From positions 1-49,399 of IMG/VR virus record IMGVR_UViG_3300041402_000217: a stretch of DNA of 49,399 nucleotides, one strand, 5' to 3'. This DNA comes from a virus. A program made the position numbers and the translations under genes. Shown piece by piece: positions 7,574 through 39,962 of the stretch (positions within the stretch are counted from its first letter, which is position 1; each line of letters opens with the position of its first letter). The notes under the pieces were generated by a model. It saw only the letters and a list, made by a program, of their open reading frames with translations, did no database searches and was not told the origin of the DNA.

Positions 7574-8160
7574 ATTCTACCTGCATCTCTCCAACTTTGT
7601 TTGCCCCGCTCTACATATCTTTCACCGGCGTCCTGGGCTTTCGCCTGTTGCAACACCACGGTTTCAAGATACTCAATCAACTCGATACGTAACTGGTTGG
7701 TCTGCTGTAGCGGGAAACTCAATTTAATAGCCAACTGAGCGGAAATCGCCTCGGCTAATAACGGGTCGAACTCGTTAGTATCGATAATCCTCTTGGTGTA
7801 AATCAACTCACAGGCAGAGGCGTTCGTATAAATAGCCCTGCCCTCTTTCTTGTACTCCGTCTGACCGTCGTTAAACTGCCTGATGAACAAACACCACGGG
7901 TTAGAGGGTAGCTGAAAACGATAAGCTTGTTTGTAACTGAAAGCATCAGGATCATAATCGCTGTCAGATGCTATTACTTTAGTGTGCTTGGCGCAACCCC
8001 ATTCGTGTCTTACCAGGATTTCATCTACTGCGGGATTGTAAAACAAATTACATAACCGAGAGGTTTCGCTGCCCTTTTCAATCGGGAATACCGACGTTAC
8101 AGGGTCGGCGCCCACCATACCAAGCCCTATATTGCATATATCAGCTATTGACCTTGACAT
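7570..8160 (-). CDS. Tail tubular protein A (T7 gp11-like adaptor)
   Basis: Start moved to ATG 8160 (AAGGAG 8 nt upstream), giving 196 aa. Pattern IADICN.GLG.VG..PV.S......S....C...Y......IL....W..A matches the gp11 family by eye. Confidence 0.7.
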   Translation of the reverse strand: MSRSIADICNIGLGMVGADPVTSVFPIEKGSETSRLCNLFYNPAVDEILVRHEWGCAKHTKVIASDSDYDPDAFSYKQAYRFQLPSNPWCLFIRQFNDGQTEYKKEGRAIYTNASACELIYTKRIIDTNEFDPLLAEAISAQLAIKLSFPLQQTNQLRIELIEYLETVVLQQAKAQDAGERYVERGKQSWRDAGRI

Positions 8161-10960: not shown

Positions 10961-11769
10961 CTTAAGGCCTCTTCTGAAACTTCCCCGAACAAATAGAAAT
11001 GATCGGGACGATTCGTTATTTTGTTGGGAAGGGCGATAGCGGTCCATCTATAGTCAGGAATCTGCTGCGTCGTCTGACAAAAATAGGCCAGGTTGTCAAG
11101 CTCTTCGTGACTTCCCTGAAAAGCAATGAGGATGTAGTTCGCTTTATCGAGGACTGCCTGTAAAATCGCATCTCTCAACGCATAAGACACTTCTGATAAA
11201 GACCATGTTGCTATAAAAAGACTGCCGCCTTCTATTTGTTCCATAAATTCCTTACTATCCAATAAATACACAAGCTGTCCCTGTTTTACCGTTCTCCCAA
11301 GATACCACTTTTGAAGGACTTGTACGGCTGGTAAATCCATGATCGTGTACTTGCCTGAAAAACCGAGATTGTGTATAAGCCGGCACATACAACCATAGCC
11401 GCCACCGAACTCATAAATTGCTTTCAGGTCTGTCAACTTACAACTCGTTCTTGAAAGGAACTGGGAAATATGGTTCGCTTGATGTATCATGTGGTCGCTA
11501 CTCAAAGGATACCACTGGTTAGGTGTGGGATTCCCCTCCGGCACTTCCTTGATAGCTTCTTTCCATTTGTCCCAGTCGGGCAGGTTCCGGAGATATTCAA
11601 AAGCACCCTGACTGTCACCCCCCTGGCTATCGTTGTAGTGCATTGTATTACTTACTATCGGCCATTTTGTAAAGTTGTTAATGTCATCTTCTTCAATATG
11701 TTTCGCTATCTTGTTGTTGTACCCTATCCAATCGTACCGAACACAAGTGTCGAGTTCTATTTTCTGCAT
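10948..11769 (-). CDS. Sugar O-methyltransferase-like class I SAM methyltransferase (paralog of the N-terminal half of 9515-10960)
   Basis: 273 aa. Shares LPDWDKWKEAI...YEFGGGYGCMCRLIHNLGF.G.YTIMDLPAV with the adjacent gene. GGGAGG lies upstream of the ATG. Confidence 0.65.
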   Translation of the reverse strand: MQKIELDTCVRYDWIGYNNKIAKHIEEDDINNFTKWPIVSNTMHYNDSQGGDSQGAFEYLRNLPDWDKWKEAIKEVPEGNPTPNQWYPLSSDHMIHQANHISQFLSRTSCKLTDLKAIYEFGGGYGCMCRLIHNLGFSGKYTIMDLPAVQVLQKWYLGRTVKQGQLVYLLDSKEFMEQIEGGSLFIATWSLSEVSYALRDAILQAVLDKANYILIAFQGSHEELDNLAYFCQTTQQIPDYRWTAIALPNKITNRPDHFYLFGEVSEEALRCRR

Positions 11770-13043
11770 AGCAAAGCCTCCCTCTGTAATTCACCTATCC
11801 GCTCGGCGCTCAGCCCTGATGTCTCGATGACTATATCAGCTTCGCCGTTTTTCTTTTTGTACGCACCGTAACCGTTTGAATCAATTTGCTTCCATGTAAG
11901 ACCCTCTTTCGGTTTGATGTCGTATTCCCCGCCGTTGCGGGCAGCATCGCCTATCGCCGTACCCTTATAGGGGAAGAATACCGTACAGTCGAAGTCAAAC
12001 TTATCAGGATATTTCTCTCTGTATTTCCTGATGAAAATGTTTGTCTGACGTGCGGTTCTTTCCGTCTCGCCCGGTAGCCCGATTATGAAGAACGCTTTGA
12101 CTCTCATGCCAGCAGCGATAACTGTATCTATGAAATAGCCCATCTGAGGAACCGTTGTCTTTTTATTGACAGTATCGAGTATCTTCTGGCTGGCGCTCTC
12201 GGCGCCAAACCCTATCTCAACACAACCGGACTCCGCCAAAAGTTCTGCCATTTTTAATGTCATTGTCGCGGCGTGGCCGAAACACCGAAAGGCCATAGAG
12301 TGCCTTTTAAGCACTTCTAAGTAGGGTTTCGCGCGTTCGATATTTAGTGCAAAAAGGTCGTCAAAAATCATCACACCCTCATACCCCAACTCTTTGATGC
12401 TCTTAATCTCTGCCTCGAAGTGTGCTACAGAAAACCACTTGGGTTTAGTTCCCCCGCTTTCACAGAATCCGCACCGCATGGGACAACCACGCGAATTGAC
12501 CATAGTTGTAGTCTTTGCCCCGTTCAAAGTATAATTGTACCTGTCAGCATACCGATGAGGAATAGGATAGCTGTTCATCTCATCCTCGGATAGTGTGTCG
12601 CAGTACATCCTCTGTTCCGGTGTGGACTTCGGCGACAGGCGGGAACATCCACCTGTAAGTAGTTCCTCCCATATCCGCTCACCGTCACCGCAGACGATAA
12701 TATCAAAGGGGTGCTTCATGCACTCGTCGAGATAGTACGTTGCGTGTGGCCCGCCTATCATTACTGTTGTATGCGGATAATACTTTTTAATATCCTCGCA
12801 TAGCCGATAAGCCTGTGGGCCTTGCGGTGTCATGCAGGAAATAGCGACAACATCATATATCCCTACCGCGCAATGGACAAGGTTGTTGTCAGTATAATCA
12901 ACATCGGCGCCTACCCTCTCCGCTACCGCCTGTAGATACTTAACACCCAGGTACGGGAATACAAACTGGTCGTCCAGAAACGGACTATCCAGCGTGGCAA
13001 GCAATATCCGCTTGCCTGATAAATTGTCTGTATTTTTCTTCAT
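11757..13043 (-). CDS. B12-binding (class B-like) radical SAM enzyme
   Basis: 428 aa. N-terminal cobalamin-binding-like segment (VVAISCMTPQGPQ...VMIGGPHATYY), followed by RGCPMRCGFCESG, which is a CxxxCxxC radical SAM cluster motif. Confidence 0.75.
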   Translation of the reverse strand: MKKNTDNLSGKRILLATLDSPFLDDQFVFPYLGVKYLQAVAERVGADVDYTDNNLVHCAVGIYDVVAISCMTPQGPQAYRLCEDIKKYYPHTTVMIGGPHATYYLDECMKHPFDIIVCGDGERIWEELLTGGCSRLSPKSTPEQRMYCDTLSEDEMNSYPIPHRYADRYNYTLNGAKTTTMVNSRGCPMRCGFCESGGTKPKWFSVAHFEAEIKSIKELGYEGVMIFDDLFALNIERAKPYLEVLKRHSMAFRCFGHAATMTLKMAELLAESGCVEIGFGAESASQKILDTVNKKTTVPQMGYFIDTVIAAGMRVKAFFIIGLPGETERTARQTNIFIRKYREKYPDKFDFDCTVFFPYKGTAIGDAARNGGEYDIKPKEGLTWKQIDSNGYGAYKKKNGEADIVIETSGLSAERIGELQREALLCRK

Positions 13044-13758
13044 TTTCCATTACACATTTAGGAGCATCTAACGGTTCTGTCGTAAACGTCATTCCGCGCT
13101 CAAATATATCCTCTCCGGCTGCTACGCGCTCTTGCAGCCTGTTCACGTCCTTGAAGTAGTCCGTATCGTATTCGGCGTGGGCAAAAGCCTCTAACTTCTT
13201 TGGTATCTGGTCAGGCGGGACAAGGTAAGAAAAGTGCCAACCGGCGTCTGGTATATAGTCTTTATACTCGCCAAGCCGTAACTTGTCCGGCGTAACGAGA
13301 TCCTTGTACTGGCAAAAAGCGGGGTACATCCATTCCTCGTTCGCCCTGCAGTTAAAGGAATAATAAAACAGCTTCATTTGCAGCCTGGTGGGATGATGGA
13401 AATGTTTCATCAGCGGCACTACCCCACGTCTCGGTATCTCATCGAGGTCGGAAACTATGATAATGTCGTCCGCCATAGCCCCCCTCAGTCCGTACAGGAT
13501 AGCGTTTCGCTGGTTCCTGTCGTTCTCAAACCTGTCAGGTCCCATCGGAGCAGAGCAGGCAATGTGGGTTATCTTGTCCTTGAACGGACCGAATATCTCA
13601 TTGTCCTTGACCTCGTCATAGTAAAGCCGTTTTGGTTTGCCTGAGTGGGTATGAGTCGCCTCTACCAGTACAAACCTGTCAACTACCGGGGACAGTTCTT
13701 TCAGGCGAATCTCCAGTAGCATCAACTCATCGAAAAACGGGAAGCAGTCGAAAATCAT
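12985..13758 (-). CDS. Glycosyltransferase family 17-like (GnT-III-like)
   Basis: 257 aa. MIFDCFPFFDELMLLEIRLKEL..VDRFVLVEA..THSGKPK ... DDIIIVSDLDEIP ... GWHFSYL is the GT17 signature as I recall it. Confidence 0.75.
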   Translation of the reverse strand: MIFDCFPFFDELMLLEIRLKELSPVVDRFVLVEATHTHSGKPKRLYYDEVKDNEIFGPFKDKITHIACSAPMGPDRFENDRNQRNAILYGLRGAMADDIIIVSDLDEIPRRGVVPLMKHFHHPTRLQMKLFYYSFNCRANEEWMYPAFCQYKDLVTPDKLRLGEYKDYIPDAGWHFSYLVPPDQIPKKLEAFAHAEYDTDYFKDVNRLQERVAAGEDIFERGMTFTTEPLDAPKCVMENEEKYRQFIRQADIACHAG

Positions 13759-15083
13759 TTTATCGCCTCCACTCTCAGGCAGGGGGTGTCTTTGGCGTGA
13801 TAGTCCGTTGCCTCAGTAAACTTAATATATTTGAACCCGGCCCTATCGAGTATGTACCTCAGCCGGTCCTCACTCGCGCCCCATCGGTGGATGTCTGTAT
13901 CGTCGTCGTTGCGGTAACTTCCATAAATGCTTATCAGGAGTTCCTCTTTCCTCGACTCGTCGGCCTCTAAATACTCCCTCATTACGGCGTCAAGGTCGGG
14001 CATTTCAATTACCAGGTTGCCTTCAGGCTTTAAGACACGTCGCCATTCCTCTAAGACGGCTATTAACGACGCATACTTCATACCGTAATCCGGGTTTACC
14101 GCAGCGTGCAGACATACCGGGATATGTTCGAGAACATGATAGCACTCGATTGTATCGACAGTGTTGTCTTGATATGGAAGTTGCCTTATGTCGCAGATTT
14201 TGTCTGTTACCGGCGTCTTCTTGCAATCGATGTTTACGTAGCCCGGAAGATATTGTGTACCGCAGCCAAGATGAAGCCTGACGGCTTCCTTTTCATGGTG
14301 AGGAAAGGGCGAAATCGGGTCGGCGTCCCACGGGTCGAACTCTACAAGTAGTTTCTTCTGGTAATCCGGCCTCCAACATTTCTGTTCTTTTTCGCTTAAC
14401 ATCGCAGCCGTAAATGAAAATGTACTGTTAGATGCTAACAAAACGTCGCAATGCTGCAGGATGTAGTGGTCGAGGAACATGCTCAAAAGCTCCGTATTCG
14501 GCTTCAACATCATCGGCTTATATTTCTCGAAGTCCGGGAAAACGGCCTCTGGGTCGTCACTTGCGAGAAAGAGGGTTGGGTTGTTAAACCTGTCCCAGTT
14601 CTTTTCCAGCCAGTCGAGATACCACTCGTTCGGAGCTACCCGGTTCGGAGGTCTGCTGTAATCACCCCTGCGTATGTGAATACCTATCAATGGCCCTGTT
14701 AATTTATCAAAAGTCTTGCTCACCCTGTCTCGTAAGGCTTGTATCGGGGTAAATAACTCCCTGAAGAAAGTTTTGTGCGGAGCATATACAGAAGTGTGAT
14801 ATTGGAAATAACCCTTTATATTGCAGTCTTCCAGTAATTCGCCGTTGCTCCATATACACTCCTGACTTGAACCGAAATCCTTTTGCGCCCGGCCCAGCCC
14901 GGAAACAGGAAAGTCTTTGCACCCCTCAAACAGTTCCCGCCCTATCCATCTTTCAGGTATCTCTACTTTCAGATGATATTTCTCAGCGTATATCTTTAAC
15001 GCCGCGTATTGGAATAACTCGTTACCATACGAACGATTCCCGACTGTTTCGTAATCAGCCAATGTTGTCATTGATACAAACAT
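13755..15083 (-). CDS. Fusion of a GT11-like (alpha-1,2-fucosyltransferase-type) domain and a class I SAM methyltransferase domain
   Basis: The track start at 15098 is TTG; the real ATG is at 15083 with AAGGAG 6 nt upstream. GIHIRRGDY motif and ...LASNSTFSFTAAML (GT11). C-terminal LHLGCG...YHVLEHIP...VLKPEGNLVIE (Methyltransf_11-like). Confidence 0.65.
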   Translation of the reverse strand: MFVSMTTLADYETVGNRSYGNELFQYAALKIYAEKYHLKVEIPERWIGRELFEGCKDFPVSGLGRAQKDFGSSQECIWSNGELLEDCNIKGYFQYHTSVYAPHKTFFRELFTPIQALRDRVSKTFDKLTGPLIGIHIRRGDYSRPPNRVAPNEWYLDWLEKNWDRFNNPTLFLASDDPEAVFPDFEKYKPMMLKPNTELLSMFLDHYILQHCDVLLASNSTFSFTAAMLSEKEQKCWRPDYQKKLLVEFDPWDADPISPFPHHEKEAVRLHLGCGTQYLPGYVNIDCKKTPVTDKICDIRQLPYQDNTVDTIECYHVLEHIPVCLHAAVNPDYGMKYASLIAVLEEWRRVLKPEGNLVIEMPDLDAVMREYLEADESRKEELLISIYGSYRNDDDTDIHRWGASEDRLRYILDRAGFKYIKFTEATDYHAKDTPCLRVEAIK

Positions 15084-15099
15084 AATATCTCCTTTCAAT

Positions 15100-15166: not shown

Positions 15167-15616
15167 TTACGTACCTACTTTAGTCAAAGGTGTAGCACCA
15201 CTAACCCAGGCATTGAACTCTGTTGCCCATGCGGTTTCCGCATTATGCCGCCAGTACATCAGCCGCAGATAACGACTGTGAGAGTTGGGGATTGCAACTT
15301 GCAATATCACCCCATCACTGTCGCTTGCCGCTTGTATCTCCGGAATACGCATTCTTTTCTCTAACAAGAATGTGTCCGTAGCCGCAAAAGCTGCGCCTGT
15401 GCTGCCCTGCAACTTGAAGCTGCACCATTCCGTTGCACCAATAAAGGTGTAAGGAGTGGCGATTGTTATGTTCAGGTAAAGCGGAGTGCCGGAACCGATG
15501 TCTAAATTCTCGGCTCCGAGGTCGATGATATTGGTGGAAAACGTCTGAGTTGCCGCGGCCGTTGCTCCGACCGTCTGAGTAGAACTAAAGATAAGTTTTG
15601 CGTCTCTTATACTCAT
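15167..15616 (-). CDS. Capsid cement/decoration protein (Bordetella phage BPP-1 Bbp16-like)
   Basis: 149 aa. MSIRDAKLIFSSTQTVGATAAATQTFSTNIIDLG...GSGTPLYL pattern. ATGA overlap with the capsid gene immediately upstream. Confidence 0.6.
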   Translation of the reverse strand: MSIRDAKLIFSSTQTVGATAAATQTFSTNIIDLGAENLDIGSGTPLYLNITIATPYTFIGATEWCSFKLQGSTGAAFAATDTFLLEKRMRIPEIQAASDSDGVILQVAIPNSHSRYLRLMYWRHNAETAWATEFNAWVSGATPLTKVGT

Positions 15617-16647
15617 GTTAAGGGTACCTCCTTACTTCCAATAGCATCCACTCGCCTTACGGGAACACCCCTGAACAGGGTTGTCGGCCTACCGCTCCAG
15701 TCACCAATGGTGTAAAGCACGTTCGTCCTGTCGACAGCGTGAATATCCATCTGCGTCTTGGTGTTTTCGTTGCAATAGATTCTGGCACCTGCACCCTTAT
15801 AAGGCAGGGCGTTAAGCGCCTCAATCAACTTGTGATGGATAGTTGCCGTGCTGCTACCGAATGACATGGTTGCAGCTATCTCTGTACGGAGGTTGGCAAT
15901 TCGCCTGATACAACGGTCGTCTCGGACTACAAGACCCGGATGGACCTTGAAGTGACTTACCAACGCCTGCATTAAAGCAGGTGCAGCGTAAGTGCCGCTT
16001 GCCTCGATGGTCTGTTCGCCGAGATTCTCATGGACTATACCCATAGTGGGTGAACCTTTCGGGTAGACCATGTGAACCTTATCCGCACCCCACTGAACGA
16101 TATAGATACTCGTATCAGCAGTGGTAGACGCTGCGCCACCGTCATAGACGTTAAATAGATTTATATCGTCTAATCGAGCAGGAAAACCGTTGAACCTTGC
16201 GGGGTATGTCTCGGCGTCGCCGTAAATAGTCGTCACGTCGCCTGAATTGTCCGCAGTGAACATGACCTTCGACAGTTCCTTGGCAAGTCCTTGTACAAAG
16301 GCTTTGTCCTCACCAGAACGAAACTGGTTGGTATTGCCGGACAGTTCTGCCAGGAGTTTATCAACACGGCTGTACGCCTCAAGGATACCAATACCCTCGG
16401 TGATTTGATTGGTACTGGATGCTTCAGGAGCAACACCTTGATTGATTGCACGCCATGTTCCGGTCGGCTCACTGGTCCGCTGGGTCGTAATATGACTCAT
16501 CGGCTGGTTTGCCTGTATCCAGATGGCGTCTTCCATCCATTCTTCAGTTGTCAGAAGAACTTCAACAATCGCTTGGAGGGCACCGAAATTGGTCCGCTTG
16601 GCTAACTGTTCAAGAGTAAGCTGGTCTCTGGTATTAAATTCAGTCAT
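15613..16647 (-). CDS. Major capsid protein (HK97-fold family)
   Basis: 344 aa. Position after the scaffold gene. Pattern ...W.QAN.P..H.TTQRTS.PTGTWRAINQGV...S...Q.TE......AYS.VDK matches the podovirus capsid family by eye. GGAG precedes the ATG. Confidence 0.8.
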   Translation of the reverse strand: MTEFNTRDQLTLEQLAKRTNFGALQAIVEVLLTTEEWMEDAIWIQANQPMSHITTQRTSEPTGTWRAINQGVAPEASSTNQITEGIGILEAYSRVDKLLAELSGNTNQFRSGEDKAFVQGLAKELSKVMFTADNSGDVTTIYGDAETYPARFNGFPARLDDINLFNVYDGGAASTTADTSIYIVQWGADKVHMVYPKGSPTMGIVHENLGEQTIEASGTYAAPALMQALVSHFKVHPGLVVRDDRCIRRIANLRTEIAATMSFGSSTATIHHKLIEALNALPYKGAGARIYCNENTKTQMDIHAVDRTNVLYTIGDWSGRPTTLFRGVPVRRVDAIGSKEVPLT

Positions 16648-16727
16648 AGCTTATTCTCCAATAAAAAAGCGAGATTTATCGGAGAACTCCCCGCTACCGT
16701 AGCGGACTCTCCTGCAAGTTACGCCTG

Positions 16728-17756
16728 TTAGACGACCTGACTTACAGGTTTACACTGGACCCTGCCGCTTCCACCGACCTGACCTCGGCTTTCACTGGTA
16801 GAGCTACCCAGGTTATCTTTCTCGCTGCCTACCCTTTCGGAACAGCGAAAATAATCTATTGTTCTTTTTAATCCTTCACGTAATAATACTTTTGGATTCC
16901 AACCCAACTTCTGCGCTAAAGTTATATCCGGGCATCTTCGCTTGGGGTCGTCTTCCGGCAAATCCTTAAATACTATGTTTAGCTTTGAGTTTATCATATC
17001 TTTGATGATTTTTGCCAGCGCGTATATATGTCTTTCGTCTGGATTGCCCAAGTTGACTGGATAATGGTCCCCCGAATCCATCAACGTAATAAGCCCATCA
17101 ACCATATCATCAACATAGCAGAAACTCCGGGTCTGTTGGCCGTCTCCGAAAATGATAAAATCCTGACCTCTTAGAGCCTGCATAATAAAGTTACTGACCA
17201 CTCTGCCATCGTCCACAGCCATACGCGGGCCGTAAGTATTGAATATCCGGGCTATTCTTATATCGACTCCATACTCGCGATGATAGTCCGTAAAGAGAGT
17301 CTCCGCGCACCGCTTACCCTCGTCATAACACGACCTCGGACCGATAGGATTGACATTGCCCCAGTATTCCTCACCTTGCGGGTGCTCTAACGGATCGCCG
17401 TAAACCTCCGATGTTGACGCCTGGAGTATCCTGGCGCCTACCCGTTTGGCCAAACCAAGCATATTGATAGCCCCGATAACCGCTGTCTTCGTGGTCTGAA
17501 CGGGGTCAACCTGATACCAGAGCGGTGAGGCCGGACACGCTAAATTGTATATCTCATCGACCTGGACGTACAGGGGGAGTGTAATATCATGCCTGATGAA
17601 TTCAAAACGGGGGTGTTTGAGTAAATGATGGATATTGCTCCTACTGCCGCTAAAGCAGTTATCTACGCATATAACCTCATTGCCCCATGCAATCAGCCTA
17701 TCGCACAAGTGCGACCCTATGAATCCTGCACCGCCTGTTACCAAAATTGTTTTCAT
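16728..17756 (-). CDS. UDP-glucuronate decarboxylase / UDP-xylose synthase-type SDR (UXS-like)
   Basis: 342 aa. [12 protein letters not shown] Rossmann motif, [21 protein letters not shown] (YxxxK) and [12 protein letters not shown] are classic UXS strings. About 38 extra C-terminal residues. ATGA overlap with the scaffold stop. Confidence 0.8.
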
Positions 17757-18511
17757 TTGCCAGTATTTCCTACTACTTTTGAATAATCCAACTCGCCCGG
17801 CTCGGTGGTCTTACCTGGTGGTTCTCCGCCAGACGGTGCAACATCGCCCTTGACCAGCTTCCACGCTTCCATAAAGAACTCAATAACCGCAGGGTGAGAA
17901 TCCAAACCGTTGGCTTTCAGTACCTCCACGAAAGACTGGTTGACTACATCGTCGCCCGGCAAGTTGTAGAACCGATTAGCCATGTCAACACCTGCATCGT
18001 ACTGGGCGCCCAGCTTGGCCTTCAACTCGTTGGTCTTGGTCTCTACCGCCTGGTCGTTGGCTGTCTTTAATGCGGTTACTGCATCATCGTTCGCCTTGAA
18101 TAAGGCGTCAATAACCATCTTCGCCTGGCCCTCATAGACGGTCTTTGAAATGCCGTTGTCGTGAGCATACTTGGACATAGCTGTAATAAGTTTCTCGTTA
18201 TACTCCTTGCCATCTTCCCTGGCTATCTCATAGCCCTCGACCGTCGGAGGACAGCCCTGCTTGGTGTAATGGGCGCGTTTCTGCTCTGGCGTAGCGTCAG
18301 CGGCTAAAGGCTGTATCGCCGTACCCAGCATCTTGTCCTTGTTGAGATAGCTCTTTACTACCGACCCAATGTTCTTGTGGTCGGCTAAATCGCCTTGTTT
18401 CGGCTTTCCGGCATCGTCGTTCTCAAACGTACCTGCCGGCAGACTGTCCATCCAGCCATCTGTAAAAGACCCATCTTCGCCTAAAACTGCTACTGCTTCT
18501 GTCTCAGCCAT
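17753..18511 (-). CDS. Scaffolding protein
   Basis: 252 aa, acidic and helical, no enzymatic motifs. Lies in the portal-to-capsid interval as in T7-like order. Confidence 0.6.
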
Positions 18512-19568
18512 CGTTCAACCCTTTCTGTTTTACTAAGCCACAAATATTGATTATCTGCTCGTCCGTCAGATTCACCGACGACGGCAGCCATAAACCCCGA
18601 TGGCTGAATCTCTTAGATACAGGATAACTCTTGCCATCAGCGTATATCTTCTGTTCGTTAATAGGCTTATATACCAGTCTCGAACCAACCCCATTCTCCT
18701 TAAGATGCTCTTGAACTACCGTAGGGTTGTCGAGATAAATGTCCACAAACCAAGGCGTTGACTCGTTTGAGCCGTGGATCATCTCAAATACATCGCTTAA
18801 CTGTGATTCATACACTTGGTAGATATGCCTTTTCCGCCCTGAAGCCCAAGGCAGTTTCTTCATCTGCTCTATACCAATAACCGCCTGTAAGTCTGTGAAC
18901 TTGAAATTGTAACCCAAAGTATTGTGTATATCACTGCCGTCTCTGCCCCAGTCCTTTAACTTCCTTATTTTGTCGTACAACCCCTCATCGTCCGTTACCA
19001 AGGCCCCGCCCTGACCGGTGGTAACTATCTTGGGCGAACTGAATGAAAATACGCCTATATCGCCGAAAGTGCCTAAATGCCTACCATTGTGGAATGAGCC
19101 TAATGACTGGCAGGCGTCTTCAATGAGAGTCAAGTTGTTTGCTGTGCAGAAATCCTGAAACCTTGCCATATCCAAAGCACGGCCATTAAGCGAAACATTT
19201 ATGATTGCTCTTGTTTTTTCTGATAATGACCATACACAATCTAAATCCATACACAGCGATTTAGCCTCTATATCCACCAGAACCGGCGTTGCGCCTACCA
19301 TTCTAACGGCGTTGGGCGTGGCTATCATCGTGTAATTGGGCACGAGAACCTCATCGCCGTATCCGATACCACAGGCCCACAGAGCTACCGCAAGGGCAAC
19401 CGTGCCGCTTGGTACGACTACGCAATACTTACTGCCGACATATTCAGCTATCTTGCACTCGAACTCCGTAGTCCTGTCGTATTCAGTCAACCACGCGCCT
19501 GACTGTAAGTAATTGTTCATGGCCTCGACTTCGTATCCGTCTATGTTTGGCTCTATCTGGTTTATCAT
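18504..19568 (-). CDS. DegT/DnrJ/EryC1/StrS-family PLP-dependent sugar aminotransferase
   Basis: Start placed at ATG 19568 (MINQIEPNIDGYE...), 1 nt after the upstream stop; the track start is 19649. Motifs VPSGTVAL..AL, DEVLVPNYT and FSFSSPKIVTTGQGGALVT (PLP lysine). Confidence 0.8.
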   Translation of the reverse strand: MINQIEPNIDGYEVEAMNNYLQSGAWLTEYDRTTEFECKIAEYVGSKYCVVVPSGTVALAVALWACGIGYGDEVLVPNYTMIATPNAVRMVGATPVLVDIEAKSLCMDLDCVWSLSEKTRAIINVSLNGRALDMARFQDFCTANNLTLIEDACQSLGSFHNGRHLGTFGDIGVFSFSSPKIVTTGQGGALVTDDEGLYDKIRKLKDWGRDGSDIHNTLGYNFKFTDLQAVIGIEQMKKLPWASGRKRHIYQVYESQLSDVFEMIHGSNESTPWFVDIYLDNPTVVQEHLKENGVGSRLVYKPINEQKIYADGKSYPVSKRFSHRGLWLPSSVNLTDEQIINICGLVKQKGLNDG

Positions 19569-19569
19569 A

Positions 19570-21306
19570 TCAATACCTGCCTCTTGTGCGGGCAAAACCG
19601 GTATCCTTTTTCGTACCATATCTATGACGAGCGGATTTTGTGCCTGCATAGTATTCTCTTTTTATTTCGCTTGCCGACAATACCCCTGAATATATCCTTA
19701 CGTCGCTTATACTGCCTGTAACAAGCTGGACCGGGCCACCATCACTGTCTGGTTTTCCCCCAATAGTTACGATGTCAACCGTGGTTGGAAAATCAGTAGC
19801 CGCCGTATCCGTTGTACTATTGGCCGAAAAAACACCATTTACATATATATCTCTATTTGCGTCCGAGTGCCAGATTCCTACTACGTGAACCCATTCGTTG
19901 TAAATCGCTGAAATCGCAGAAACAGTGTCAACGGGTACAGCTGCGCCGCCTTTCATTCTCATTATCGGGACACCGTTTTTAAGGTCTAATCCCATCCATC
20001 GGAGATTAATCCCCGTAACACCATCAAGGGCAATCATTAATAATGTGGAGGTTTGGGAAGAAGGTATTTTATACCACGCAGAAAAGGTGCACGGAAAACT
20101 CAACAACGGCACAGCGGCGTCATCTATATAATCGCCCGTTCCGTCTAATGTTAAGCCATGACCGACAGGTGCTAATACTGAAACTACATCCTCGCTGTTT
20201 GTTCCGTGATAAGCGTTGCCGCTGCTGTCAATAATGGCCCCCGCGCCAGCCGCCGTTCCATCCGCCTCGTCTAATTTCCAATGAGCGACAAGGGGTGTAG
20301 CCGTTTTGTAGCTTCTCTGGTGGCCGTAACCTGTTAAAGTTACCAACCCCTCCTGTCCGTTAATTGTTGTATGGGTCGGTGATGTTATCTCTAAGACCGC
20401 ATGAGAGAATCGGCCCGTATCAGTTTCGTCTTCACCCCACAAATCCCCTCGTAAGTTGATGTACACAATTCCATTTACGATTTCAGTTCTATCGTCAACG
20501 TGAATATGACCCTGAATGACTACGGGTTTTATCGTCTGGGCTTCCATTGCAATTACAGCAGCCGCGCCGCCGCCAGTTGCCCCTTCAGCGCGGGTTGTGT
20601 ATAATGGCTGATGGGTTACTACTATTACCGGCGTCCCAGCCCCCTCTGCGACAGCCAAGTGGCTTTCAAACCAAGCCTCTTGTGTCGATGCCCCGCCCGA
20701 ATCATCGCCGGTAGTCTCCATATCTATAACTGCACCCGGATTGCATAAAACAAGTATCATAAAGCCGCTATCGTCAAAACGATAAGCACAGTAAGTGTCG
20801 TTGGCGACATCAGGGTTAAGATTGTCCGGCCACCACATATCAGCGTCTCTGCCCGCTGGTATAATATCAGTAACCCCGCTCGAAAGACCCGTAAACGCAG
20901 CGGCAACATCCGTCCCAGTCATAGTAGCGCCGCCTATATCCCAATGGCCGAAACAATACAGCATATCCGCATTAAGACCGTTACTCGATGCGTGAGCGCC
21001 ATCTATCCAACTGACAAGTTCTGCGTAATTCTGGGCGACAGTGCCATCGGTAGCGTCGTTTATCATATCGCCACCGTGAATTACCAAATCGACTACGTCT
21101 GTGTTGAACTGGTCAATGGCCTTGCCCATTGAATTGTCTTGGAAACCAGGTAATCGTTTTCCGGGTTTGTCGCCATACGGGTCAGCCGCAGTACCCTCTG
21201 TAAGACGAATATGAGTATCATACCATAAGCCTACTTTAATAGTTGCCGAAGGCCAACAGACCGAACACGATAACAACAACAGAAATAAGATTATAAACTT
21301 TCGCAT
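19570..21306 (-). CDS. Exported (lipoprotein-type signal) calcineurin-like metallophosphoesterase fused to a C-terminal LamG domain
   Basis: 578 aa. MRKFIILFLLLLSCSV has a lipobox-like LLSC. Phosphoesterase motifs YDTHI, HGGDMIND, GHWD, VVTHQP and QGHIHVDD. The C-terminus has LVAHWKLDE...GVLSASEIKREY (LamG). Confidence 0.7.
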   Translation of the reverse strand: MRKFIILFLLLLSCSVCWPSATIKVGLWYDTHIRLTEGTAADPYGDKPGKRLPGFQDNSMGKAIDQFNTDVVDLVIHGGDMINDATDGTVAQNYAELVSWIDGAHASSNGLNADMLYCFGHWDIGGATMTGTDVAAAFTGLSSGVTDIIPAGRDADMWWPDNLNPDVANDTYCAYRFDDSGFMILVLCNPGAVIDMETTGDDSGGASTQEAWFESHLAVAEGAGTPVIVVTHQPLYTTRAEGATGGGAAAVIAMEAQTIKPVVIQGHIHVDDRTEIVNGIVYINLRGDLWGEDETDTGRFSHAVLEITSPTHTTINGQEGLVTLTGYGHQRSYKTATPLVAHWKLDEADGTAAGAGAIIDSSGNAYHGTNSEDVVSVLAPVGHGLTLDGTGDYIDDAAVPLLSFPCTFSAWYKIPSSQTSTLLMIALDGVTGINLRWMGLDLKNGVPIMRMKGGAAVPVDTVSAISAIYNEWVHVVGIWHSDANRDIYVNGVFSANSTTDTAATDFPTTVDIVTIGGKPDSDGGPVQLVTGSISDVRIYSGVLSASEIKREYYAGTKSARHRYGTKKDTGFARTRGRY

Positions 21307-21314
21307 AGCTTCCC

Positions 21315-21914
21315 TTAATAACCTGAAACCTCAACAATGCAATCCTCATCGAATGTGTCCCATCCGTGGAACAGGAACCTGTTATAACCAAGTGTATCAT
21401 CAATATAAAACAGGGCCATCGTATCATCGTCGTCGGAAATAGCCGAAACACCGCCGCGCCACGTTTCGTTAGAGATGTTTATAGTTTGCGCAAAATGATT
21501 CGTAGCATTGGTATAGTTCTGCAACCCACAAATTACATCCAGCGTACATACCCGCCTCATCTCGTTAATACCCCGACACGCCCAGACATCTATATCCACA
21601 TCTTCGTCGTTGGTAGTTAAGACAAATCGTACCTCGAGAGCGTTCATGCCCGGCAATGTTTCCACATATACGGAATTATCCAGGGCAGCGGCAGAAGCAA
21701 AGTCTCTTTCGGCTACACCTAATGTGTCGTCAGCGTCGCCAGCGGTTGCGTCTATCGTGCCAATCGGAAGCCACGGCAAGTGGGCTGAAGACAGAATTGT
21801 TTCGTTAGTCGGCAGATACTTCGCTCTGTCGATTATGTCCGCTCTCATAAGATTAGCGCCAACAAACAGAATGAGCAATAAGGCGATAGTCATTACACTG
21901 TGTTTCGATGTCAT
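21315..21914 (-). CDS. Signal-anchored/secreted protein of unknown function
   Basis: 199 aa. N-terminal hydrophobic segment VMTIALLLILFVGANLM. AGGAGA lies 6 nt upstream of the ATG. Confidence 0.6.
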   Translation of the reverse strand: MTSKHSVMTIALLLILFVGANLMRADIIDRAKYLPTNETILSSAHLPWLPIGTIDATAGDADDTLGVAERDFASAAALDNSVYVETLPGMNALEVRFVLTTNDEDVDIDVWACRGINEMRRVCTLDVICGLQNYTNATNHFAQTINISNETWRGGVSAISDDDDTMALFYIDDTLGYNRFLFHGWDTFDEDCIVEVSGY

Positions 21915-21924
21915 TTTGATTCTC

Positions 21925-22329
21925 CTAAATTAGTACCTTGTCCTTTTCTACCGTAATATACGGCCCGTTCTTGCACTCTATTATTTTGGTGTCGGGCTGT
22001 CTTATCTTGAAACCATGCGCGCCATTGACCATGACTATAAAATCGCCGCTACTAAGCACCTCAGTACGAAACAGCCGATTATTCTCGTCATACAAGTTCA
22101 CTTCCAGTAACCCCGATAAGACGATATTGCACTCTTGCGTCAGATTGTTTGGCCGTTCGTTCTCAATATGGCGGTGAGGCTTGCATTTGTTGTCCTCCTG
22201 ATACCAGAATGTGCCTACTTGCAAGAACATCTCATCCGGTGTGATGAAGTTAAGCCCTTTCTGCCAGCCTGCTGCCCGGAGTATAATCGCGTAAAGCACG
22301 CCGTCTTTCCTTATTTCCTCTGCCACCAT
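21925..22329 (-). CDS. Cupin-fold protein, possibly a nucleotide-sugar ketoisomerase/epimerase
   Basis: The cupin core (KPHRHIENE...ECNIVLSGLLEVNLYD) lies after Met54 of the track ORF (21925-22488, TTG start). The shorter start is chosen because the upstream 93-aa ORF is coupled on both sides. The start remains uncertain. Confidence 0.5.
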   Translation of the reverse strand: MVAEEIRKDGVLYAIILRAAGWQKGLNFITPDEMFLQVGTFWYQEDNKCKPHRHIENERPNNLTQECNIVLSGLLEVNLYDENNRLFRTEVLSSGDFIVMVNGAHGFKIRQPDTKIIECKNGPYITVEKDKVLI

Positions 22330-22592
22330 TGCCTCCGTTTCTGCGGGATAATACCCAGCATATTCTGTATTATTATCTGGTAATTGCCAGGCTTCCAGAA
22401 CCCGCTTTTCTCTAATATCTTCTTGGCGTGGATATTGAGTACGTTCTGTTCCGCCGGGGTCAAGGCCTTTGAAGTGCATGTATCCCAAAAGCCTAAAGCG
22501 CCCAATATGTCCACTAATACCCGCGCACCGTCACCAGAAGTAAAGGTGTTGCGATAAGCCTGGTTGCGCTCTGTGTCATTATTGAATATCAT
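22311..22592 (-). CDS. Small head-module protein (hypothetical)
   Basis: 93 aa. ATGA overlap with the upstream ORF. The segment AYRNTFTSGDGARVLVDILGALGF resembles small proteins found next to portal genes in some podoviruses (from memory only). Confidence 0.45.
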   Translation of the reverse strand: MIFNNDTERNQAYRNTFTSGDGARVLVDILGALGFWDTCTSKALTPAEQNVLNIHAKKILEKSGFWKPGNYQIIIQNMLGIIPQKRRQWWQRK

Positions 22593-22834
22593 CTCTTGTT
22601 ACCTAAACAGACCTTTTCTATCGGCAGCCATTCCCACATATCAAAGGCAGAACAATAAAGAGCGTGATCCTCTGTTGCCCTGCCGCGAGTTGTATATAAC
22701 TTTTTGCAAAGAGGGCACGCCGCTAACCAACGGCCACAATTTGTTTTAAGCAAAAGGCTTAATAATTTAGTCACTTTACATTTAACGCACAGAGCAGTAC
22801 CATACTTGCCAGATGCTTCAAAAACCGCCATCAT
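22589..22834 (-). CDS. Small zinc-ribbon-like protein
   Basis: 81 aa with CVKC...CPLC. ATGA overlaps at both ends (portal stop and next start). Confidence 0.45.
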   Translation of the reverse strand: MMAVFEASGKYGTALCVKCKVTKLLSLLLKTNCGRWLAACPLCKKLYTTRGRATEDHALYCSAFDMWEWLPIEKVCLGNKR

Positions 22835-24549
22835 CCACCCCCTGTCAATGCAGCCACCGGACTGCCCGATTCTATCTCTTTGCCTAAGCCCGGAACTACC
22901 TTAGCGGCCTCTAACGCCATTTCAGCCGTTCGCCTTTCCTGTTCCGCCTGTGCCCTTATTTCCTGTATTTCTTTAACCTCGTCATCAGTCCGCATAAGTT
23001 TGACCGGCATACCGTGAGCGTCAAATATCTCCTCAACAGTCTCCTCAACCTTCAGGCGGTCAAGGGCTGTTACCGGCTGCTGGGCCGCTATCTGTAATTG
23101 AACCAACGGCTCTAAGGCTGCTATGCCCTGATTGATACCCTGTGTCTTGAATAACCGTTTCTGGGCCTGTGCCAGAGGTCCTACGTAATCAACGTCAATC
23201 AATCGAGCCTTGCCGCCCGTGCCGGTCTGTTCGTCCCGGACCATCTCGTCAAGGACTATCTGGGGTGGGGGTGGTATGCGCCCCGCGGCCATCTCAATAT
23301 CGAATACCTGGGCGTGAATTATATCCAAGACAGTATTGAGCGTGCCGAGGTCAGGCCCCATGGCTGCCGCCTTTTCGCCTTGAATCTCCATGACCTGTGG
23401 GACAGTAAGGGTCCGGCCCTCCATCGCGGCCTGGGTAAGTGCCATAAAGAAACTCACCTTGAAATTGTCCATTACCCCCTGGCGAACCCGGTCCATCATC
23501 TCTACACTGAAACTCTTATTACTGCCAGTGTCAATCCGGCGTATTTCGTCCCTGTCGTCGTTATAATAGTTCTGGCCGCCTGGGTTGAGGTCAGCTTCGC
23601 CACGCTTGCCCTCCGGTACCATCCAAAGACCATCAGCTTCCATCTGGGCCGATCCCAGCATCGAACTAGCCATCGAATTGGCGGTATAAACCGAGATAAG
23701 GGCTTCACCTATAAGACCCCTGCCGTAAGGTAGATTAGACGGCTTCTTGACACGCCAGACGGGCGGGAACCTGTCCAAACTGCTGGTCCGTATCAAGTTA
23801 GTGCCATCGACCTGGACCATGTATGTATTGAACTTGCGCCTGCCCTGTACTAAACTACCCCTGACATAGTCCGGGTTCGGCCATACCGCCCAGATAAACT
23901 CCGTCTTTTCCGCTATATTCGTGTTGTTACTAATCGCGGTCCGGACACCCTCAGAGAGCTTCTTTATCTCCGTATCGGTAAAAGCACTCTTAACCTGGTG
24001 GATGGTCCATTTATACTTGCGGTGCATTAAGTTGGCATAACCAAACTTATCGTCCGCTAACCATACCTCGCGAGGGTGAGGGACCATGAACCCTATCTTG
24101 CCCTCGCCCTCTATGTCCTCAATGAACATCGTTGCCAAACCTATGCCGTCACCATCCCGTAAGAAACTGCCGATTACAGAAGCATCATAGAAGTTCGACC
24201 GACTGTAAGCATAGTATATACCCTCGTCACACTCCTGTAGCCAGCCCTGGACCTCGTCTAATTCCCGCAGTTCCTTATCAGCCGACCGAGACATGAACCA
24301 CGTTATAGCCGGTGATACGTGATAGCCACTAATGCCATCAGCACGGATATTGAGGGCTTTTATACAACTGTCGTCGAAAACCTGGTATTCCTTGTCCCTG
24401 CCGGTCTGAGCTATGCCCTCCCAATCGTTGCGGGCGGGATAACCTAAAGCAGTAGATTCCTTCCATAAATCCACAAACGGGTCCTTGACCTGCTCTAACT
24501 CCGTCTGGCGATTAACTACCTGCTGCTCTATTGTTTGCTCGTTAGCCAT
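22831..24549 (-). CDS. Portal (head-to-tail connector) protein
   Basis: 572 aa. Lies immediately downstream of the large terminase. Size and N-terminal pattern are typical of podovirus connectors. Confidence 0.8.
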   Translation of the reverse strand: MANEQTIEQQVVNRQTELEQVKDPFVDLWKESTALGYPARNDWEGIAQTGRDKEYQVFDDSCIKALNIRADGISGYHVSPAITWFMSRSADKELRELDEVQGWLQECDEGIYYAYSRSNFYDASVIGSFLRDGDGIGLATMFIEDIEGEGKIGFMVPHPREVWLADDKFGYANLMHRKYKWTIHQVKSAFTDTEIKKLSEGVRTAISNNTNIAEKTEFIWAVWPNPDYVRGSLVQGRRKFNTYMVQVDGTNLIRTSSLDRFPPVWRVKKPSNLPYGRGLIGEALISVYTANSMASSMLGSAQMEADGLWMVPEGKRGEADLNPGGQNYYNDDRDEIRRIDTGSNKSFSVEMMDRVRQGVMDNFKVSFFMALTQAAMEGRTLTVPQVMEIQGEKAAAMGPDLGTLNTVLDIIHAQVFDIEMAAGRIPPPPQIVLDEMVRDEQTGTGGKARLIDVDYVGPLAQAQKRLFKTQGINQGIAALEPLVQLQIAAQQPVTALDRLKVEETVEEIFDAHGMPVKLMRTDDEVKEIQEIRAQAEQERRTAEMALEAAKVVPGLGKEIESGSPVAALTGGG

Positions 24550-28121: not shown

Positions 28122-28196
28122 TGGGGCAGACTGGAATCGAACCAGCGTAGCCTCCTGATTACAAAACAGGTGCTCTCCCTGCTGAGCTACCGCCCC
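28122..28196 (-). tRNA. tRNA-Thr (anticodon UGU), non-standard length
   Basis: Hand-folded reverse complement GGGGCGG TA GCTC AGCAGGGA GAGC A CCTGT TTTGTAA TCAGG AGGCTAC GCTGG TTCGATT CCAGT CTGCCCC A. T-loop TTCGATT. About 7 nt in the variable region. No encoded CCA. Confidence 0.7.
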
Positions 28197-39853: not shown

Positions 39854-39881
39854 TTACTCCCGTATTAAGTTAATAAAACAC

Positions 39882-39953: not shown

Positions 39954-39962
39954 AACCGTACC

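Follow-up and report, generated by a model that had tools for sequence, protein, structure and literature searches.

Genes at the locus

The window, that is, the whole 49,399-nucleotide stretch of DNA that was analysed (IMG/VR record IMGVR_UViG_3300041402_000217), carries an exact 127-bp terminal repeat and is, therefore, a complete (circular) genome, that of an uncultivated epsilon15/BPP-1-like tailed phage (podovirus). All of its sugar genes and head genes lie on the minus strand (Table 1), and the observation made in an earlier note on this DNA, at 16728–22329, is borne out: a gene for a UDP-glucuronate decarboxylase (UDP-xylose synthase, UXS) is flanked by a scaffold-like gene and the gene for the major capsid protein, with a DegT-type aminotransferase and a cupin upstream of them. 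The genes are co-oriented, with neighbours overlapping by 4–8 nt; 4 nt are shared by the scaffold stop and the UXS start, and 8 nt by the DegT stop and the scaffold start. Internal promoter- and terminator-like sites do not exceed their frequency in shuffled sequence. The spacer between UXS and capsid genes is predicted to fold, the modelled energy being −28.5 kcal/mol for the 96-nt stretch 16640–16735 that encloses it. The arrangement is not an assembly artefact, since an identical contig was recovered by two independent assemblies and the same gene order recurs in other samples (contigs L081, L092 and L093).

Table 1. Features of the head module and of the glycan genes inserted in it, in order of transcription
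Feature	Coordinates	Strand	Evidence
Portal protein; upstream boundary of head module	22831..24549	-	PF12236 Head-tail_con, 235 bits
93-aa head-module ORF preceding first insertion site	22311..22592	-	Conserved in relatives
Cupin, 134 aa (from Met54 of a 187-aa ORF)	21925..22329	-	WbuC-like (marginal), predicted fold
199-aa protein, N-terminal signal-like hydrophobic segment	21315..21914	-	Segment at residues 1–29
578-aa exported protein, calcineurin-like metallophosphoesterase and LamG/ConA-like lectin domain	19570..21306	-	PF13385 72 bits; PF00149 28 bits
DegT/DnrJ/EryC1/StrS sugar aminotransferase	18504..19649	-	PF01041, 303 bits
Putative scaffolding protein, 252 aa	17753..18511	-	phrog_3742 (E 3e-17), phrog_458
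UDP-glucuronate decarboxylase (UXS), 342 aa	16728..17756	-	402 bits to human UXS1
UXS–capsid spacer: predicted RNA hairpin, T-run, GGAG ribosome-binding site	16648..16727	-	Sequence and fold prediction
Major capsid protein, BPP-1/epsilon15 type	15613..16647	-	PF20911 GP7, 272 bits
Bbp16-like head decoration/cement protein	15167..15616	-	PF21190 41.5 bits; phrog_427
GT11-type glycosyltransferase–class I methyltransferase fusion	13755..15098	-	PF01531 28.7 bits; PF08241 31.5 bits; phrog_2644 glycosyltransferase
GT17-family glycosyltransferase	12985..13758	-	PF04724, 114.5 bits
B12-binding radical SAM enzyme	11757..13043	-	PF02310 58.6 bits; PF04055 63.8 bits
273-aa protein, weakly like sugar O-methyltransferases	10948..11769	-	TIGR04371 29.8 bits (cut-off 44)
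Paralogue of 273-aa protein fused to DUF268 domain	9515..11047	-	PF03269, 50.3 bits
GT2-like glycosyltransferase, last gene of glycan block	8141..9511	-	phrog_14179 glycosyltransferase, E 6e-21; PF00535 26.7 bits
Tail tubular protein A; downstream boundary of glycan block	7570..8190	-	phrog_394 tail protein, E 4e-33

Within the head module, the capsid protein is 34–40% identical to those of isolated phages, and the portal protein is 65–67% identical among relatives. The 252-aa gene is a putative scaffold, assigned by position and conserved synteny, the relatives also having a scaffold-like gene directly upstream of the capsid gene. The 93-aa ORF gave no match in family searches; it is kept in all close relatives, including those without sugar genes, and in the distant L086 (30%). 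Glycan genes have been acquired at three sites of this late head-and-tail operon, namely portal/scaffold, scaffold/capsid and decoration protein/tail. The second of these, which the earlier note had found very unusual, is an insertion relative to the ancestral module, given that in about a dozen more distant relatives the scaffold gene is followed directly by the capsid gene, with no UXS between.

Two exported proteins, of 199 and 578 aa, are window-specific insertions, found in none of the nine relatives. Family searches gave no match for the former. The latter, which has a signal-like segment at residues 1–25 and the phosphoesterase motifs DxH, GD and GHxH, is possibly a lipoprotein and probably stands outside the sugar pathway.

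UXS, cupin and DegT in the phage and its relatives

The reading of the SDR as a UXS-type decarboxylase holds. It is an extended SDR which matches the Pfam Epimerase family (178 bits) and contains GxxGxxG, the Thr/Tyr/Lys triad and the UXS-specific Ser/Glu/Arg, with motifs GGAGFIGSH (residue 8), STSEVYGDP (114), YDEGKR (144) and a further ten-residue string (170). Its closest solved relative is human UXS1 (hUXS1; 2b69/4gll; E 2e-119), all six of whose active-site residues are kept, T118, S119, E120, Y147, K151 and R277 being T115, S116, E117, Y144, K148 and R274 in the phage enzyme. ArnA (~71–83 bits) and UDP-apiose/xylose synthase (78 bits) score lower. Over ~305 residues the enzyme shares ~60% identity with hUXS1 and ~70% with bacterial UXS (entries named ‘UDP-glucuronic acid decarboxylase family protein’ from Desulfovibrio, Methylobacillus and others). 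It differs from known UXS in being phage-encoded and sited between scaffold and capsid genes, and from hUXS1 in a ~36-residue low-complexity C-terminal tail, which is partly common to L081. In L081, L092 and L093, where portal and scaffold are only 59–67% identical, orthologues share this position and the 4-nt overlap; in a rough NJ tree these phage orthologues separate from named bacterial UXS. Elsewhere in IMG/VR, 27 contigs encode UXS in unrelated contexts.

The DegT protein is likewise an aminotransferase with the PLP lysine that had been proposed, Lys207 in SPKIVTTGQGG aligning with the Schiff-base lysine of solved aminotransferases. The ORF spans 381 aa, with a likely start placed by the gene caller at 19595 (363 aa). 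Its nearest curated models are LegC (239 bits), PseC (221), ArnB (163) and DesI (162), all under cut-off.

The third enzyme is indeed a cupin, as judged from an AlphaFold (AF2) model (pLDDT 86.5) in the form of a beta-barrel whose top PDB matches are cupins. Homologues of 132–139 aa back its start at 22329, and residues H52, H54, Q65, E66 and H105 are invariant. A Pfam search gave no match, and the NCBIfam WbuC-cupin model (TIGR04366) gave 35.5 bits, under its cut-off of 42. The protein belongs to a large uncharacterised family (2608 representatives, one of them fused to an NDP-keto-sugar C-methyltransferase architecture) which marginally resembles WbuC, and its predicted role is to isomerise or epimerise an NDP-keto-sugar before DegT acts. 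In this regard, FdtA/QdtA 3,4-ketoisomerases and RmlC-type epimerases are also small (~135 aa) cupins with a conserved H-x-H, encoded beside a sugar aminotransferase gene, as here. Unlike them, the phage cupin has no sequence match to any Pfam family, which places it outside the FdtA and RmlC families, or to solved structures; its predicted fold matches the FdtD ketoisomerase domain weakly in Foldseek (TM 0.49–0.50, E 0.03–0.1) and RmlC at TM 0.45, no better than it matches unrelated metal-binding cupins. In neither sequence searches nor fold comparison, then, does it fit a characterised sugar-cupin family. An FdtA/FdtB-like pathway, in which cupin and DegT act on a host dTDP-4-keto-6-deoxyhexose, had been one of two options in the earlier note; the cupin–aminotransferase pairing and the C-methyltransferase fusion leave it generically plausible, no more, given the missing Pfam match and the weak ketoisomerase fold match.

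The distribution of the three genes was followed through nine related phage contigs, all of them fragments. Cupin, DegT and UXS occur together in the window and L081; L092 has cupin, mini-DegT and UXS; L093 has UXS only; L085 has cupin and DegT without UXS; L001/L034 and L082 have cupin and mini-DegT without UXS; L084 has DegT and no UXS at the site, the contig end cutting off the cupin position; and the visible part of L035 has none of them. Wherever both positions are visible (six loci), the cupin is paired with an aminotransferase. In other words, UXS and cupin/DegT assort independently in related phages, where, the relatives being fragments, an SDR/UXS may yet lie elsewhere in the genomes of those that lack it here.

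Cellular genomes carry close homologues of both cupin and DegT in a widespread, uncharacterised SDR–cupin–methyltransferase–DegT cassette (loci L032 and L094–L096), often adjoining TPR/GT41 glycosyltransferases. Phage cupin and DegT are 56% and 62.5% identical to the cassette members (cupin of 132 aa), and the methyltransferase domain of the phage GT11 fusion, which sits 4 kb away, shares 36% identity with the cassette methyltransferase (~185 aa). The cassette SDR (305 aa, GalE/6VO6-like) is absent from the phage. It is of non-decarboxylating type, is only 26% identical to the phage UXS and reads STTSFYG where 4,6-dehydratases have Asp-Glu; its best solved relative is 6VO6 (236 bits), which we take to be C. 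jejuni Cj1427, a GDP-heptose C4-dehydrogenase.

As the earlier note had stated, neither a 4,6-dehydratase nor a nucleotidyltransferase is found in any other ORF of the complete genome, and the phage has to rely on nucleotide sugars from host pools. UXS is the sole enzyme in the genome able to generate a keto-sugar; necessarily, therefore, the substrate of cupin/DegT would come from the host, or after all from UXS.

The transferase block and its probable acceptor

Just downstream of the capsid genes lies a conserved glycosyltransferase/methyltransferase block, which is missing from the earlier note and which likely supplies the purpose of the sugar enzymes. This syntenic, clade-conserved block makes up ~20% of the genome and is 57–85% identical in every relative contig reaching that far; it is absent in distant relatives, which show a plain portal–scaffold–capsid–tail order. 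The GT11–methyltransferase fusion is 64–76% identical among relatives, the GT17 gene is kept in L034, L082 (two copies), L084, L092 and L093, the 273-aa protein is 81% identical in L082 and the GT2-like protein 74% identical in L092 and L093. Residues 33–288 of the DUF268 fusion share 47% identity with the adjoining 273-aa gene. The B12-radical-SAM enzyme, whose nearest curated models (PhpK, HpnJ and AprD4) all fall far under cut-off, is probably a methyltransferase acting on a glycan or sugar. No transferase or methyltransferase of the block has a transmembrane segment, and no flippase (Wzx), polymerase (Wzy) or priming transferase was detected genome-wide. Among the related contigs no block transferase co-varies with UXS, such that no phage xylosyltransferase is assigned. 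S/T-rich capsid insertions occur in the clade, including in L035, whose visible part is without cupin/DegT.

The explanation that we hold to be somewhat better than evenly supported is that the phage encodes a glycosylation system of its own in the cytoplasm, fed with sugar nucleotides by two independent modules and probably directed at virion proteins. Indeed, the position of the genes, the solubility of their products and the absence of export machinery suggest that the phage glycosylates its own particle. As a canonical UXS, the first module would convert host UDP-glucuronate to UDP-xylose, the 4-keto-pentose and NADH staying bound until reduction. In the second, the cupin would rearrange a host-made NDP-4-keto-sugar, which DegT would then aminate using PLP and an amino donor. 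The soluble enzymes whose genes directly follow those for the capsid and decoration proteins (the GT11–methyltransferase, GT17, GT2-like, B12-radical-SAM and methyltransferase proteins) would take up both products along with sugar nucleotides of the host, and would build a methylated oligosaccharide on a cytoplasmic acceptor late in infection. We infer that the likeliest acceptor would be virion proteins, for example the capsid or decoration protein.

The same enzymes could instead modify the host envelope (LPS, capsule or surface-protein glycans), and so block superinfection or the sticking of progeny to debris, after the manner of seroconverting phages. This is a possible but distinctly less probable reading. 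Epsilon15-type phages are classic O-antigen converters, and homologues of the cellular cassette accompany Wzy and MurJ-type flippases in clusters that resemble O-antigen loci; here, however, the transferases are all soluble, with no membrane-embedded Gtr-type transferase, flippase, polymerase or priming phosphoglycosyltransferase beside them, and the genes form part of a late structural operon in which stops and starts overlap, away from any lysogeny module, in a genome in which no integrase was detected. The two exported proteins among the sugar genes (p199 and the phosphoesterase–LamG protein) would fit an envelope target, but neither recurs in the relatives.

Less likely again is the other option of the earlier note, an ArnA/ArnB-like coupling in which UXS-made UDP-4-keto-pentose passes, perhaps via the cupin, to DegT to give a UDP-4-amino-4-deoxy-pentose for the phage glycan. 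It would account for a genome whose only keto-sugar generator is UXS, for the joint presence of UXS, cupin and full-length DegT in the window and L081, and for a cellular cassette in which cupin/DegT are accompanied by an SDR missing from the phage. Moreover, the hUXS1 lid mutants E120A and R277Q accumulate NADH or give decarboxylated product only, and, according to PMC12488480, a metabolite mimicking the UXS1 reaction intermediate regenerates the UXS1 cofactor. Nevertheless, Glu120 and Arg277 close the hUXS1 active site and stop the keto-pentose escaping (PMC3438964), and both are conserved in the phage as E117 and R274. The SDR gives 81 bits with the ArnA model (cut-off 777) and 94 with that for UDP-4-keto-pentose synthase (cut-off 294), DegT is nearer LegC, PseC and perosamine-synthase types than ArnB, and UXS occurs alone in L093 while L085, L001/L034, L082 and L084 keep one or both of the other genes with no UXS at the site. 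The coupling is accordingly disfavoured.

That the genes are generic auxiliary metabolic genes, either recent host captures boosting host polysaccharide metabolism or neutral passengers, with no phage-specific glycan, appears improbable. Metagenome surveys do report UXS as a viral auxiliary gene, its other viral contexts are unrelated and it is patchy among the relatives; yet its orthologues hold one site and one overlap despite the divergence of portal and scaffold, stand apart from bacterial UXS in the rough tree, and accompany a transferase block to which a fifth of the genome is given. Least probable is hypermodification of phage DNA (glycosylated modified bases) against restriction, for although phage glycosyltransferases put diverse glycans on 5-hydroxymethylpyrimidines (10.1101/2023.12.21.572611, PMC13326640), the complete genome yielded no hydroxymethylase, TET/JBP-type dioxygenase, DNA methyltransferase or gene of nucleotide metabolism, and the sugar genes stand among those for head and tail, not among replication genes.

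Relation to known systems

Further known systems can be compared with the phage genes. The ArnA C-terminal decarboxylase and ArnB likewise bring together an SDR-superfamily UDP-GlcA decarboxylase and a DegT-family aminotransferase in one region, but the phage SDR is a UXS, unlike ArnA, DegT is no ArnB equivalog (163 bits against a cut-off of 631), and their genes assort independently in relatives.

Capsid glycosylation in mycobacteriophages offers a precedent: according to PMC11256854, citing Freeman et al. 2023, Che8 and further cluster F phages encode glycosyltransferases that have been proposed or shown to add sugars to capsid proteins in the bacterial cytoplasm, and in Maravista, which like Che8 belongs to cluster F1, the genes for these enzymes are found close to the right-hand end of the genome. 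In the present phage, whose host is probably Gram-negative, some nine glycan genes, among them those for sugar-nucleotide enzymes and for four or five proteins of methyltransferase type, are instead interleaved with podovirus head genes.

Giant viruses differ in having eukaryotic hosts, genomes of >300 kb and other transferase families, and Mimivirus has its own 4,6-dehydratase, which this phage does not. They nonetheless glycosylate their capsid or fibril autonomously (PBCV-1 A064R and A061L; Mimivirus R141, L136 and L142; PMC9614988), encoding for their own particle sugar-nucleotide tailoring enzymes, among them a DegT-type aminotransferase (L136), as well as soluble transferases and transferase–methyltransferase fusions, such as the GT–GT–methyltransferase protein A064R; enzymes of these kinds are likewise encoded by the phage described here.

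The sugar genes in the late operon

Taken one by one, the sugar enzymes all fall in or near known families, some as ordinary members and others as marginal relatives. What is unusual is the arrangement, in which modular sugar-nucleotide feeder genes are inserted at the portal/scaffold and scaffold/capsid junctions. On the simplest reading, these feeder genes serve a clade-conserved transferase/methyltransferase block in the head–tail operon of a small podovirus. A limited literature search found no description of such an arrangement.

The window carries an exact 127-bp direct repeat at its two ends (1–127 and 49273–49399) and is therefore a complete genome of ~49.27 kb, either circular or with terminal redundancy; the contig was assembled independently in two collections. 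All genes lie on the minus strand, and the late operon is tabulated here as read along transcription.

Late operon genes in order of transcription
Feature	Position	Strand	Remark
Terminase	24761-26134	-
Portal	22831-24549	-	PF12236
93-aa ORF	22311-22592	-
Cupin	21925-22329	-
199-aa signal-peptide protein	21315-21914	-
578-aa exported metallophosphoesterase-LamG protein	19570-21306	-
DegT	18504-19649	-
Scaffold-like protein	17753-18511	-
SDR (UXS)	16728-17756	-
Major capsid protein	15613-16647	-	PF20911
Bbp16-like decoration protein	15167-15616	-
GT11-methyltransferase fusion	13755-15098	-
GT17	12985-13758	-
B12-radical-SAM enzyme	11757-13043	-
Methyltransferase-like protein	10948-11769	-
Paralogue of methyltransferase-like protein, fused to DUF268	9515-11047	-
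GT2-like protein	8141-9511	-
Tail tubular protein A	7570-8190	-	fibre and tail proteins next

At the DegT/scaffold, scaffold/SDR, capsid/decoration and GT11/GT17 junctions, neighbours overlap by 4–8 nt. Within the block, sites resembling promoters or terminators are at or below their frequency in shuffled sequence. None is notable around the inserts, and the idea that moron-type promoters or terminators flank them was dropped. The overlaps, together with the lack of any excess of such sites, mean that the sugar genes belong to the late transcription unit. About 20% of the genome (~9.7 kb) is given over to glycan genes proper. By megablast the 16-kb region has no match among GenBank phages, the closest isolated phages having capsid proteins at most 40% identical.

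Several features of the layout deserve mention in their own right. In the 80-nt spacer between UXS and capsid genes (16648–16727) a stable hairpin is predicted, and after it come a T-run and a GGAG ribosome-binding site; the level of capsid expression may be set here, by processing or by attenuation. Upstream, a 187-aa cupin ORF and the 93-aa ORF (21925–22592 together) overlap by 178 nt, both frames being apparently conserved in the related contig L001. Homologues place the start of the cupin at Met54 (22329), the apparent N-terminal extension reflecting the overlapping gene. Between cupin and DegT, the 199-aa protein, for which no homologues were found, and the phosphoesterase-LamG protein, possibly a lipoprotein, are both exported and, among the relatives compared, occur in the window only; they are probably an unrelated insertion. 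The LamG part bears a weak likeness (25% over 169 aa, E 3e-4) to the LamG insert of a 1477-aa tail protein. Beyond the operon, the early or other region (26500–49399) holds single ORFs with cREC_REC, RyR, YopX and HNH domains, a tRNA-Thr (28121–28197), a tRNA-Glu (39881–39954) and two large ORFs of 1500 and 505 aa with no family matches, which probably encode internal virion or tail proteins.

Identity of the decarboxylase, aminotransferase and cupin

An earlier note on this DNA had named a UXS-type decarboxylase, a DegT enzyme with a PLP lysine, and a cupin. These observations stand, and the motif strings it quoted for the first two are present in the window. The SDR has the NAD-binding motif GGAGFIGSH at residue 8, of the N-terminal GxxGxxG type, and matches the extended SDR fold (PF01370, 178 bits; PF16363, 176 bits). 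Human UXS1 (hUXS1) is matched with 402 bits (E 2e-119), as opposed to 151 bits for the next best subfamily (GalE-type), 71–83 for ArnA and 78 for UDP-apiose/xylose synthase (UAXS). Bacterial proteins that bear the name UDP-glucuronic acid decarboxylase share ~70% identity with the SDR. The active site of hUXS1 comprises six residues, the SDR triad Thr118, Tyr147 and Lys151 and the UXS-specific Ser119, Glu120 and Arg277; of these, Glu120 and Arg277 are reported to shut the site and hold back the keto-pentose (PMC3438964). All six align with identical residues in the phage protein (T115, Y144, K148, S116, E117 and R274), and they are likewise conserved in the orthologue of the related contig L081. 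The SDR falls short of the curated NCBIfam models for ArnA (NF005998, 81 of the 777 bits required) and for the bifunctional UDP-4-keto-pentose/UDP-xylose synthase (NF008872, 94 of 294). By sequence, then, the SDR is a UXS (EC 4.1.1.35), predicted to convert UDP-GlcA to UDP-xylose without net consumption of NAD+.

UXS genes have been annotated on viral contigs before. The only isolated-phage record so annotated, 'Aphanizomenon phage Yong-DA' (ON073792.1), was rejected as a comparator, since its UXS lies among Wzy, Wzc, Ugd, polysaccharide export and recombinase genes, in what looks like a cellular EPS island and not a typical phage module.

DegT matches PF01041 from end to end (303.5 bits, cut-off 19.8; residues 36–373 on profile positions 3–359 of 360). 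Its Schiff-base lysine, K207 in SPKIVTTGQGG, aligns with the Lys of 7B0M (GNKIITTGGGG), there being no dehydratase-type histidine at this position. Six aminotransferase equivalogs were compared (LegC, PseC, ArnB, DesI, WecE and RfbH), and no cut-off was reached: LegC gave 239 bits against 420, PseC 221 against 424, ArnB 163 against 631 and DesI 162 against 650. ArnB is a more distant match to DegT than the LegC, PseC and perosamine-synthase types are.

The cupin has no Pfam match at E ≤ 0.01, the FdtA and RmlC families included, and nothing significant among PDB sequences by single sequence or profile. On the WbuC-cupin model TIGR04366 it reaches 35.5 of the required 42 bits, and its cellular and phage homologues reach 33–34. 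Its AlphaFold model, a confident one (pLDDT 86.5), is a beta-barrel with cupins as best PDB matches; these are generic, with high rmsd, and in Foldseek the FdtD ketoisomerase (TM 0.49–0.50, E 0.03–0.1) ranks no higher than metal-binding cupins. Given the lack of a PDB sequence match and the generic fold matches, the protein was not assigned as FdtA, RmlC or WbuC. The family has 2608 representatives at E ≤ 0.001, one of which, P0394 (530 aa), is fused to the three-domain architecture of an NDP-sugar C-methyltransferase (PF08421 + PF13489 + PF08484), a Rosetta-stone hint that the cupin acts on NDP-keto-sugars.

Supply of the keto-sugar

Nine related contigs from IMG/VR, JGI, ENA, NCBI and Logan, with a capsid identity of 70–87% where the gene is present, were scored for gene presence by tblastn.

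Feeder genes in the window and nine related phage contigs
Locus	Cupin	Aminotransferase	UXS
Window, L081	yes	full-length DegT	yes
L092	yes	240-aa 'mini' DegT	yes
L093	no	no	yes
L085	yes	full-length DegT	no
L084	position beyond contig end	full-length DegT	no
L001/L034, L082	yes	mini DegT	no
L035	no	no	no

From this pattern it follows that UXS and the cupin/DegT pair assort independently. The cupin accompanies an aminotransferase in all six loci that show both positions, despite there being two aminotransferase types. Phage UXS copies share one insertion site and the same ATGA overlap, and group separately from named bacterial UXS in a rough neighbour-joining tree without bootstrap support; a single acquisition with later losses fits this history. 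The mini DegT-family protein (236–241 aa; L001 7812–8537, L082 5832–6542, L092 7821–8543), which stands in place of a 363-aa DegT, is only ~28% identical to the full-length enzyme. It matches PF01041 at 72 bits and keeps a lysine at the Schiff-base position, with ~120 residues missing.

Homologues of phage DegT, 55–64% identical, occur in cellular contigs as part of a recurrent cassette of a 305-aa SDR, a 132–139-aa protein 56% identical to the phage cupin, a ~185-aa methyltransferase and DegT. Between this methyltransferase and the corresponding domain in the phage GT11 fusion, identity is 36%. The SDR of the cassette shares only 26% identity with the phage UXS; at the position of Asp-Glu in 4,6-dehydratases and of Ser-Glu in UXS it carries STTSFYG. 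Among solved structures it is closest to 6VO6 (236 bits), which we take to be C. jejuni Cj1427. Cj1427 is a GDP-heptose C4-dehydrogenase (PMC10680097). TPR/GT41 glycosyltransferases flank the cassette in L032 (8097–11077) and in a marine gammaproteobacterial MAG (L094 4141–9649, also L095 and L096), where it forms a compact five-gene island; in one further cellular contig it sits within an O-antigen-like cluster. The cassette looks like an undescribed sugar pathway for protein glycosylation with a non-decarboxylating SDR. This context and the P0394 fusion together place the cupin in NDP-keto-sugar chemistry, before transamination.

Of the cassette, the phage has counterparts of the cupin, DegT and the methyltransferase, and lacks the SDR. 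A host enzyme must therefore make the keto-sugar or, less probably, UXS supplies it, as in the ArnA/ArnB-like logic of the earlier note, by which DegT aminates a keto-pentose made by the SDR. In this regard, the conserved hUXS1 residues, the wide margin by which the ArnA and keto-pentose synthase models were missed, the distance of DegT from ArnB and the independent assortment all argue that the SDR is probably not the supplier. The pathway logic of that note is thus partly wrong; its statement that the phage has no 4,6-dehydratase or nucleotidyltransferase holds across the other ORFs of the complete genome.

The proposed glycan and its likely acceptor

The block that follows the decoration gene (GT11-methyltransferase, GT17, radical-SAM, methyltransferase, DUF268 and GT2-like) is conserved at 57–85% identity in every relative that extends so far (L034, L082, L084, L092 and L093). 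In more distant relatives, among them contigs binned with Syntrophaceae MAGs, the order is simply portal–scaffold–capsid–(decoration)–tail. Residues 33–288 of the 510-aa DUF268 ORF are 47% identical to the adjoining 273-aa methyltransferase-like protein, of which it is a tandem duplicate fused to DUF268; in the relatives the DUF268 protein stands alone (223–229 aa).

Glycosyltransferases encoded by the phage itself (GT11, GT17 and GT2-like) are what a virion glycosylation system would entail at the gene level. No membrane segments are predicted in any transferase or methyltransferase of the block, and nowhere does the genome encode a flippase, a polymerase or a priming phosphoglycosyltransferase. 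Gene position, transferase solubility and this absence of export genes lend indirect support to the virion as target, and the most likely acceptor, by analogy with giant viruses (PMC9614988) and with mycobacteriophages (PMC11256854), would be the capsid or decoration protein. The simplest reading would have glycosylation occur in the host cytoplasm, the system being expressed together with the structural genes. A rival reading has the host envelope as target. Phage DNA is less likely still, and DNA modification was rejected, as the genome has no base-modifying enzyme.

We tentatively propose, while regarding it as somewhat less probable than its negation, that a podovirus clade with ~49-kb genomes and anaerobe hosts autonomously glycosylates its own capsid or decoration protein, within the host cytoplasm, with a complex, heavily methylated glycan, the composition of which is tuned by swappable feeder cassettes. 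UXS would provide xylose, and the cupin/aminotransferase pair an amino sugar by a pathway common with bacterial protein-glycosylation islands.

Two S/T-rich insertions in the capsid of the sugar-carrying clade (residues ~130–142, FTADNSGDVTT; ~262–270, FGSSTAT) are candidate glycosylation loops. They are missing from most distant relatives and were dropped as discriminating evidence, since L035 has them and some distant relatives do in part. Host inference was also dropped, its sole basis being the distant relatives (42–47% capsid identity) binned with Syntrophaceae MAGs.

If confirmed, the proposal would mean that phages, with relatives binned with Gram-negative anaerobes, can devote about one-fifth of a 49-kb genome to a glycan of their own, and that head-assembly operons tolerate insertions even between scaffold and capsid genes. 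Donor supply would be modular and exchangeable between close relatives, a possible mechanism of antigenic or receptor-masking diversity. It would also provide a handle on the widespread bacterial cassette adjoining GT41 protein glycosyltransferases. On the practical side, a glycan shield bears on how immunogenic and how stable a phage is. To our knowledge, mycobacteriophages are so far the only tailed phages in which glycosylation of the virion has been demonstrated, and they are described only as encoding glycosyltransferases. Set beside the glycosylation of giant viruses, the system proposed for this clade would be a miniature version in a tailed phage.
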